From: Anaerolineae bacterium
GTDB taxonomy: Bacteria > Chloroflexota > Anaerolineae > SpSt-313
DNA length: 53,313 bases
Assembly: GCA_034436375.1 (NCBI GenBank)
Contig: DAOTVS010000286.1
Coordinates: 1 to 53,313 of the forward strand
Direction of reading: 5' to 3'
Shown here: in pieces, positions 18,373 through 18,587 of the stretch
Position numbering within the stretch: the first letter of the stretch is position 1
Layout: each line of letters starts with the position of its first letter
Translations under genes and position numbers: made by a program
The notes under the pieces: model-generated
Databases searched by the model: none
What the model was told of the DNA's origin: nothing
The model's input: only the letters and a program-made list of their open reading frames with translations

Positions 18373-18587
18373 CTCGTAATGAGTAATGCGTAATCCGTAG
18401 GGTTACCATGGAACGTAATAAGTAAGCCGTAATAAGTAAGGTCGCTATTGCGGAGCATCTATTGCTCTTCGCAGCGTTTGCGTTAGCGAGGCTGACGCAA
18501 AGCAACGGGCATGCTGGAAGAGCGGCCTTACTTATCACGCTTCACTTATTACGAGTCGCAGCGCATTACGGTTTACGTGTTACGTGC
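18373..18587. repeat. Heptamer-armed palindromic element (copy E11), composite with a doubled 5' arm
   Basis: Arm 18373-18402, junction TTACCATGG, second arm 18411-18441. The core 18442-18525 is 84 bp. The 3' arm is 18526-18587. It lies in a divergent intergenic region. Confidence 0.85.

Follow-up and report, generated by a model that had tools for sequence, protein, structure and literature searches.

What kind of element occupies positions 18442–18525 of the Anaerolineae contig DAOTVS010000286.1, where 84 nucleotides (nt) carrying mirrored motifs lie between two inverted arrays of 7-nt repeats? An earlier note on this DNA took the 84-nt segment, hereafter the core, for an imperfect hairpin whose constant length reflects a structural or spacing constraint. 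Our analysis of the whole 53,313-nt stretch (the window) leads to a different answer. On balance, and with modest confidence, we read the region as a copy of a lineage-specific, dispersed and palindromic intergenic repeat, which resembles MITEs (miniature inverted-repeat transposable elements) or the hairpin-forming pairs of repetitive extragenic palindromes (REPs) called REPINs, and has a "foldback" type of construction. Its core consists of an inverted duplication, and the mirrored motifs and CATGG junctions are accordingly two terminal-inverted-repeat-like halves, not a selected RNA helix.

Nine intergenic elements of the window, located by repeat finding, Tandem Repeats Finder (TRF) and a direct scan, share one layout, in which a tandem array of 7-nt units (the left arm) is followed by a core of 82–85 nt and then by the inverse array (the right arm). 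Their cores start at 1397, 6065, 7531, 8861, 18442, 20549, 28319, 30953 and 37211, and these nine copies from a single 53-kb window are all that were analysed. The arm units are CGTAANN or AGTAANN with GTAAGG as the innermost unit, and the junctions with the core are of the GTAAGG type on the left and of the CCTTAC type on the right. TRF finds a period of 7 and up to 9.7 copies in the arms, which are A/T-rich within a genome of 64% G+C (the value for the window) and are not G-quadruplex-forming. No conserved open reading frame (ORF) was found in the cores, and the ATG in the core at 28319 is not a called start.

When the nine left half-cores are set beside the reverse complements of the nine right half-cores, a single half-consensus emerges, GTAAGG-T.GCCATgGCGGAGC-(~6 nt)-(A/T)TGCTCT-CG. 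All 18 half-cores align over ~28–36 nt and fit this one consensus, which makes the core an inverted duplication of a ~42-nt unit of the form T.GCCATGGCGGAGC-N6-TGCTCT. The CATGG junctions and the TGCTCT/AGAGCA pair are therefore the same motifs seen from both ends, and a hidden Markov model of the core consequently matches several copies on both strands.

The mirrored motifs could instead be the two strands of a helix, as the earlier note proposed, in which case the core would be a structured RNA domain with a TGCTCT/AGAGCA helix and an apical region of ~30 nt under RNA-structure selection. The palindromic consensus is real, since 63.8% of cells in the core helices pair as against 30–51% in registers slid past one another; of the seven copies that can be oriented, five or six have the direction of their flanking genes; and the copy at 18442 folds well on its own (z = −3.0). 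The pairing does not behave like that of a selected helix, however. The 63.8% compares with 62.8±1.7% when letters on the 3′ side are exchanged at random between copies, and 173 of 500 such shuffles reach the observed value. In pair counts based on the full hairpin structure of the copy at 1397, the five TGCTC/GAGCA pairs of the proposed helix (core positions 21–27 and 58–64) are either conserved or changed on one side only, without any double change in the nine copies. Half-cores are as complementary to the partners of other elements as to their own (0.449 and 0.458, permutation p = 0.36). In the RNAalifold prediction pairing stops after the arms and the first four pairs of the core, with no core helix; the folding energies of eight of the nine cores are no better than those of dinucleotide-shuffled sequence (z −1.45 to +1.07; rounded values for the eight are −0.6, −1.2, +1.1, −0.6, −1.5, +0.4, −1.0 and +0.6, with a mean of ~−0.65 when the −3.0 of the 18442 copy is included). 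G·U and A·C mismatches on the transcribed strand are symmetric (9 and 6 in the arms, 14 and 12 in the core) and thus give no strand-specific sign of selection at the RNA level. Searches against Rfam returned no match at the gathering score for the whole window and nothing relevant at E<1 for two copies, and the core was not found in the DNA sampled from related genomes. The core has neither covariation support nor an Rfam family, and we consider an RNA domain improbable.

The arms give the opposite result. Together with the first five core positions they covary, with 82.5% of cells pairing as against 74.0±1.8% under shuffling (0 of 500 shuffles reach the observed value) and double changes in ten pairs where 4.7 are expected; whole elements fold with z = −7.4 and −7.0. 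The stem is the heptamer array, whereas the core is a decayed palindrome that owes its pairing potential to the shared consensus. The negative covariation result for the core is clear for these nine copies, and the imperfect hairpin with its apical region is not borne out.

Other parts of the earlier description hold up better. The core lengths of 84, 84, 83, 84, 84, 82, 85, 85 and 85 nt are reproduced with its boundaries, the right junctions of the copies at 8861, 28319 and 30953 being ambiguous by 1–2 nt. The motif [ATC]TGCT[CT]T with at most one mismatch, said to be in all nine cores, is present in eight at core positions 20–22; the exception is the copy at 28319 (ATGTTTG, two mismatches). 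Its chance rate in random 84-nt windows of the same sequence is 5.3%. The mirror motif was attributed to most copies, which is generous wording, since it is found with at most one mismatch in five of nine and the other four need 2–3 mismatches. The CATGG junctions were correctly placed in ten of ten cases, and CATGG or CCATG occurs in 7 of the 18 junction windows of 16 nt, compared with 3.6% of random windows. In leave-one-out nhmmer searches seven copies are clear homologues, the copy at 37211 is recognised weakly (8.8 bits) and that at 6065 is unrecognised, its identity to the other copies being 37% as against 35% for shuffled sequence. The seven solid copies have a mean pairwise identity of 49.6% (35% in shuffled controls), with ~2 gap columns and ~42 mismatches per pair and with TGCT fixed at position 21±1.

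These values could be thought to reflect chance resemblance or the choice of boundaries, given the copy at 6065 with its lack of detectable homology and the three ambiguous right junctions. Yet the arm-gap-arm pattern had 0 matches in 100 shuffles of the window, the nhmmer core model matched the nine copies and no others in 1.4 Mb of DNA (E-values 1e-10 to 1e-17), and the left motif occurs in 8 of 9 cores where about 5% is expected. Such an explanation is already refuted for at least seven copies, and we give it practically no credence.

Regarding the constant length, the earlier note had argued for a structural or spacing constraint and against recent copying. Recent copying is indeed excluded, because the copies are diverged yet have kept their length and motif register, but the structural part of the argument is not supported. 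Common descent suffices to account for the constant length, and a spacing constraint on the core is possible. The inter-arm distance in the heptamer hairpins of related genomes is 62–88 nt, and at no fewer than 107 loci in other phyla it is spread across the allowed 70–100 nt (25–100 nt with a median of 74 once extra units are trimmed); 82–85 nt is not a general property of heptamer hairpins.

A spacing constraint would follow naturally if the core were a protein-binding module at the DNA level, with the CGCCATGGCG dyad near each arm and TGCTCT...AGAGCA acting as half-sites for a dimeric protein (a transposase, a recombinase, or a nucleoid or regulatory protein) whose geometry fixes the distance. 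The motif sequences are kept without compensatory change and in a register of ±1 nt, indels are very few relative to substitutions, and CATGG is enriched at the junctions, all of which speak for such a module; it would also be compatible with halves that are transposase-binding terminal inverted repeats. Against it, the window encodes no candidate protein, the full CGCCATGGCG dyad is intact in one copy only, and the motifs are degenerate in many copies, so that we regard this explanation as unlikely.

The copy at 18442 differs from the others in orientation and setting. Its leave-one-out nhmmer score is higher on the minus strand (41.6 bits) than on the plus strand (29.8 bits), and it is thus inverted relative to the rest; it lies in a divergent spacer. 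Its left flank is CGTAATAAGTAAGCCGTAATAAGTAAGG and its right flank is the near-perfect inverse. The features of the spacer are as follows.

18442–18525, minus strand: core copy of 84 nt, inverted relative to the other copies (sequence reading and leave-one-out nhmmer).
18413–18441, no strand: inner left heptamer arm, CGTAATA AGTAAGC CGTAATA AGTAAGG, pairing with 18526–18553.
18526–18553, no strand: inner right heptamer arm, CCTTACT TATCACG CTTCACT TATTACG.
18374–18411, no strand: outer left arm followed by AGGG and TTACCATGGA, a second, truncated element enclosing the core copy, with its partner arm at ~18560–18590.
18560–18590, no strand: outer right heptamer arm, CATTACG GTTTACG TGTTACG.
18588–18616, minus strand: sigma-70-like promoter match TTGACA-17-GATACT, a consensus match only.

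In the minimum free energy fold of this copy TGCTCT pairs with GGAGCA (core 11–16) or with AAGAGC (core 77–82), not with the motif at 58–64; the z-score of −7.4 given above is that of this element with its arms. The putative promoter at 18616–18588 would read leftwards through the element towards the minus-strand gene at 17758–18360. It is the nearest sigma-70-like match and lies outside the element; none was found inside any copy, and a promoter within the element was rejected on that ground.

Comparison of strains shows which part of the element changes. Near-identical strain contigs (99.5–99.9% identity) have 0 substitutions in any element. Strain L002 (99.5% identical) lacks 21 nt, exactly three heptamers, of the left arm of the copy at 20549 (window 20484–20504), while the core is identical; this deletion is the sole gap in 4 kb between the strains. 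The arms thus have the character of a heptameric simple-sequence repeat, being tandem, intergenic and variable in unit number between strains.

A search of ~110 kb of more distant relatives, five or six lineages (L230–L235, L241–L244) whose YchF proteins are 77–82% identical to that of the window, did not find the core. The orthologous spacer between the VanW and YchF genes has CGTAAAA/CGTGAAA arms around an unrelated interior of ~60 nt in L230, and CGTGATG arms around ~35 nt in L233 and L235; L231 retains three heptamers only, and L241 and L243 lack the spacer. In the syntenic L244, the spacers matching those of the copies at 28319 (72 nt, between livF and a substrate-binding protein gene) and 30953 (at the end of the ATPase gene) carry no element. 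Orthologous sites are therefore polymorphic for presence and absence, with L244, L241 and L243 lacking the element and L230 and L233 having hairpins with other interiors. That the core was not found in this sampled DNA indicates that the core family expanded in this lineage, whereas heptamer hairpins are older and widespread. The spacer of L233 orthologous to that of the 18442 copy, upstream of VanW (L233:7720–7815), holds a near-perfect GC-rich palindrome with arms of ~45 bp (GGGGTTTGGGTGGGTTGGTTGGCCCTGCAGGCTGCCCCTGG...); related genomes occupy the same spacers with different palindromic elements.

Beyond this group, a scan for the arm-gap-arm pattern with one genome per species found at least 107 loci in many phyla, and the core was absent among the matches listed. 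Inverted (GTRAGGN)n arrays occur in Gemmatimonadota, Nitrospirota, Syntrophorhabdus, Chloroflexota including Caldilinea, beta- and gammaproteobacteria, Bacteroidota and others. Their GTRAGGN heptamer combines a TAA or TGA stop codon with a Shine-Dalgarno (SD)-like AGGAG and flanks interiors of 25–100 nt (for example, L005:4432–4559, L030:6096–6232 and L095:4387–4505). An arm-only scan of metagenomes gave at least 120 loci, again with the core absent among the matches listed. A blastn search of plasmid and phage collections with one copy gave no match, nor did an Rfam search with the heptamer hairpins of 19 other loci.

This distribution bears on whether arms and core form one element. IS1397 and related elements target the loops of REPs and of bacterial interspersed mosaic elements (BIMEs). 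By analogy, the 84-nt core may be a separate small mobile palindrome that inserts at the apex of pre-existing heptamer hairpins, the arms being older host features. The VanW–YchF spacer of relatives has the same unit types (CGTAAAA/CGTGAAA) around shorter, unrelated interiors, and the core is not found in relatives while heptamer arrays occur in many phyla. Nesting is also seen in the window, where the 18442 copy lies inside the outer arms at 18374–18590 and a palindrome with 9-mer arms lies inside heptamer arms at 13583–13925. On the other hand, every heptamer array of the window, solo ones included, carries AGG and the first 10–14 core bases, so that no empty target site is seen; units of these types are widespread in the genomes concerned, and the arms need not be orthologous; and no target-site duplication is visible. 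Apex insertion deserves to be kept in mind, but in our judgement it is doubtful.

The remaining copies and fragments in the window are listed here.

1366–1508, plus strand: copy with arms at 1366–1396 and 1481–1508 and core at 1397–1480.
6032–6180, plus strand: copy with divergent CGAAG-type arms and core at 6065–6148; layout kept, CTGCTCT at position 22, homology undetectable.
7510–7647, plus strand: copy with core at 7531–7613; upstream stop codon (7519–7521) in the arm.
8832–8972, plus strand: copy with core at 8861–8944, the nearest to the consensus, carrying CGCCATGGCG; upstream stop codon (8835–8837) in the arm.
20479–20680, plus strand: copy between VanW and YchF with CGTAAAA/CGTGAAA units (10 left, 6 right) and core at 20549–20630.
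28290–28434, plus strand: copy with core at 28319–28403, after the last gene of a liv-type ABC operon.
30924–31050, plus strand: copy with core at 30953–31037, after the ATPase gene of an amino-acid ABC operon.
37185–37310, plus strand: weak member with core at 37211–37295; upstream stop codon (37186–37188) in the arm.
6999–7045, plus strand: truncated copy consisting of left arm, GTGAGG and the first ~12 core nt (TCACCATGGCGG), without a right arm.
12728–12765, plus strand: truncated copy consisting of left arm, CTGAGG and TCGCTATGGCG.

A further pair of heptamer arrays at 35989–36140 (CGTCAAA/CGTGAAA on the left, GCTTACG/GATTACG on the right) encloses a pyrimidine-rich interior of ~90 nt that is unrelated to the core family.

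The genes of the window are ordinary metabolic and housekeeping genes, nearly all on the plus strand, and its YchF is closest to proteins that the sources assign to metagenome-assembled genomes of Anaerolineae or Chloroflexota. Eight of the nine copies lie in co-directional spacers, each of which starts from the stop codon; the ninth is the divergent one at 18442. In five of the eight the upstream stop codon falls within the first heptamers (1371–1373, 20481–20483 and the three listed above), the one at 1371–1373 being a TAA within the very first heptamer, and in two it precedes the arm by 2–3 nt. The arms of the copy at 6065 have no TAA, and the upstream ORF crosses the arm and stops at core bases 2–4; this MFS transporter ORF (4830–6068) runs through the entire left arm, whose CGAAG-type units lack stop codons, and ~12 of its C-terminal residues are arm-encoded. 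Three GTAANNN units put a TAA into each of the three frames, and the inverse arm has the same effect on the other strand. On the downstream side, a GGAGG-type ribosome-binding site (RBS) follows the right arm within 5–20 nt in six of the eight co-directional copies (at 1397, GGAGG and then an ATG at 1523); the distance is ~27 nt for the copy at 6065, and no RBS adjoins that at 30953. The copies separate functionally unrelated neighbours, and none lies within the liv-type or the amino-acid ABC operon.

Heptamer hairpins of other phyla show a similar preference. Among 32 high-GC loci, 25 hairpins are in co-directional, 6 in convergent and 1 in divergent spacers, compared with 97, 33 and 34 of the other spacers there; inverted heptamer arrays thus avoid divergent spacers (1/32 against 34/164, Fisher p = 0.02). 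The test was confined to high-GC loci because a universal codon-position score did not discriminate genes in the low-GC loci. One of the cross-phylum hairpins starts 13 nt after a tmRNA gene. The stop-to-RBS placement and the avoidance of divergent spacers fit an element that lies downstream of a gene and is transcribed, and the transcribed element is probably a long 3′-end or intercistronic hairpin. The junction ATG was also considered as the start of a peptide or gene and was rejected, as the called start of the gene downstream of the 28319 copy is at 28453 and the other core ATGs soon meet stop codons.

By architecture and behaviour, the element is best described as a palindromic intergenic repeat in which a heptamer microsatellite forms the stem and an inverted duplication forms the conserved core; its nearest kinds are hairpin-forming MITEs, REP/REPIN sequences and intergenic heptameric microsatellites. 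MITEs that form long transcribed hairpins include the Correia elements (CREE) of Neisseria, the enterobacterial ERIC/IRU sequences and Nezha of cyanobacteria. Like them, the elements described here are short (about 130–200 nt), non-coding, dispersed and intergenic, have a near-constant length and end in one inverted consensus, are present or absent between related genomes, and would be expected to be co-transcribed with their neighbours as a hairpin. An inverted terminal consensus, short near-constant size, dispersed copies (seven clear and two divergent in 53 kb) and orthologous presence/absence, the marks of a MITE, are thus all seen. Unlike those MITEs, the elements have stems made of tandem 7-nt microsatellite arrays that vary between copies and are prone to slippage, and neither a target-site duplication nor an autonomous partner was identified for them. 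With ~50% identity the copies are also far more diverged than those of typical active MITE families.

REPs, BIMEs and REPINs, as described in PMC3116915 and PMC3733652, are likewise extragenic palindromes that lie at the 3′ ends of genes or in co-directional spacers and form inverted hairpin pairs. The same papers propose roles in termination and mRNA stabilisation and describe REPs/BIMEs as hosts or targets for other insertions (PMC3116915, PMC3733652), and give the REP unit as 20–40 nt with a GTAG or CGTC tag recognised by RAYT transposases (PMC3733652). The half-unit found here is ~42 nt long and starts GTAAGG-T.GCCATGG; no short hairpin with the GTAG/CGTC tag that marks a REP is present. 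The 84-nt core, the arms made of heptamer arrays and the absence of a RAYT gene from the window are further differences.

The arms recall the intergenic tandem 7-nt arrays of other bacteria, namely GGGAATC in Xanthomonas, GGGGAYT and the STRR sequences in Nostoc (PMC4692102) and TAACTGA in Beggiatoaceae (PMC4679880). The Xanthomonas arrays form 70–75 convergent (inverted) pairs that are potential stem-loops, they vary in length between related strains, most are transcribed, and only 7–8% fall between divergent genes (PMC4692102). No function is reported for these heptameric repeats (PMC4692102, PMC4679880). The unit here is different (CGTAANN or GTRAGG), and a conserved palindromic core between paired arrays is not described for them. 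Bidirectional or "I-shaped" intrinsic terminators (PMC8355165), including the mycobacterial type, are similar in lying just after stop codons at transcription-unit boundaries and in forming a symmetric hairpin, A-rich on its 5′ side and U-rich on its 3′ side. The avoidance of divergent spacers by the heptamer hairpins of other phyla, and the one that follows a tmRNA gene, are further points of likeness. Unlike intrinsic terminators, the present elements have a stem of 20–50 bp and a poorly paired loop of ~75 nt in place of a compact GC-rich stem and U-run, and the downstream RBS within 5–20 nt leaves no room for a promoter.

How a MITE/REPIN-like repeat of this kind would have arisen can be outlined. 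The element may have spread by transposition or copying into stop-to-RBS spacers or into existing heptamer hairpins. Since copying, the two core halves have drifted independently, without compensatory change, and the length of the arms shifts between strains in 7-nt steps, by slippage. On transcription, an A/U-rich stem of 20–50 bp would close a loosely paired loop of ~75 nt, and the hairpin might then stop transcription, hold up exonucleases or serve as an RNase III target.

Several observations weigh against this reading of the locus. Neither a transposase or RAYT-like gene nor a longer element sharing the termini (AGGTCGCCATGGCGGAGC...TGCTCT) occurs in the window, and no empty heptamer hairpin is present there that would demonstrate insertion. 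The flanks are inverted heptamers (GTAAGG/CCTTAC), in which a 2-bp TA duplication (GTA|AGG...CCT|TAC) can be read but is indistinguishable from the arm consensus. About 50% identity with hardly any indels is more length-conservative than is expected of unconstrained bacterial DNA, and this scarcity of indels leaves room for a real spacing constraint. As regards the function of the hairpin, no canonical terminator (GC-rich stem and U-run) was found in any element in a scan of positions 1–20000, the right arms being U-rich but interrupted, and the symmetry of G·U and A·C mismatches counts against it as well. With only nine copies from one 53-kb window, the covariation and length tests are of limited power. 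Targeting of TTAC in the manner of IS608 was considered separately and rejected, as on either strand TTAC is found on the 3′ and not the 5′ side of the core.

Other repeats share the window with these elements. A second palindromic family at 4624–4785 and 13680–13845 has 9-mer arms (CACGGATTG) and ends GCTGTCAACGG / CCGTTGACAGC; its TTGACA boxes are the strongest sigma-70-like matches of the first 20 kb, and its copy at 13680–13845 is the one nested within the heptamer-armed hairpin at 13583–13925. A third kind of hairpin with tandem-repeat arms lies at 53231–53295, directly after the last gene, where a perfect 27-nt inverted repeat with 11 nt between its arms is made of 10-nt units (GGGACTCATG GGAACTCGTA GGGACTC). 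The 83-nt inverted repeats at 47–129 and 2122–2204 (94% complementary) bound a 2.16-kb segment that holds a DUF6951 gene, a URO-D fragment, a 2-thiouracil-desulfurase-like gene and the copy at 1397. In other metagenome contigs position 47 is joined to the reverse complement of 2205–2293, and 2204 to that of 4–46; both orientations of the segment appear to exist, which points to an invertible segment or to a repeat at which the assembly is ambiguous. Paralogous pairs with 71–84% DNA identity over blocks comprise GH116-type glycosidases, LivK-type binding proteins and MFS transporters (38492–41062/44246–46753, 22046–23197/23423–24796 and 10062–11270/11506–12747), and a separate 31-nt inverted repeat (9807–9837/10029–10059) lies upstream of the first MFS gene.

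What looked like a structured RNA with a conserved core becomes, through this analysis, a palindromic-repeat family that can be tested as such. In genome annotation, the elements account for the many ORFs of the window that terminate within an A/T-rich array. Inverted heptamer arrays as a class, found in many phyla, are more interesting than this one family. A bolder and distinctly unlikely view would make heptamer-stem hairpins a phylum-crossing 3′-end or intercistronic class (in Chloroflexota, Gemmatimonadota, Nitrospirota, Syntrophorhabdia, beta- and gammaproteobacteria and others) with slippage-tuned stems and units that supply a stop in every frame, frequently together with an SD-like AGGAG. 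A palindromic mobile module of 84 nt, specific for this target, would here have settled in the apex, and protein-binding dyads at a fixed spacing within it would explain the constant length despite ~50% divergence. If the hairpins act at mRNA 3′ ends, slippage, of which one case is seen here, would make the stem length differ between strains, and read-through or the stability of mRNA could thereby be tuned at many operon boundaries at once.

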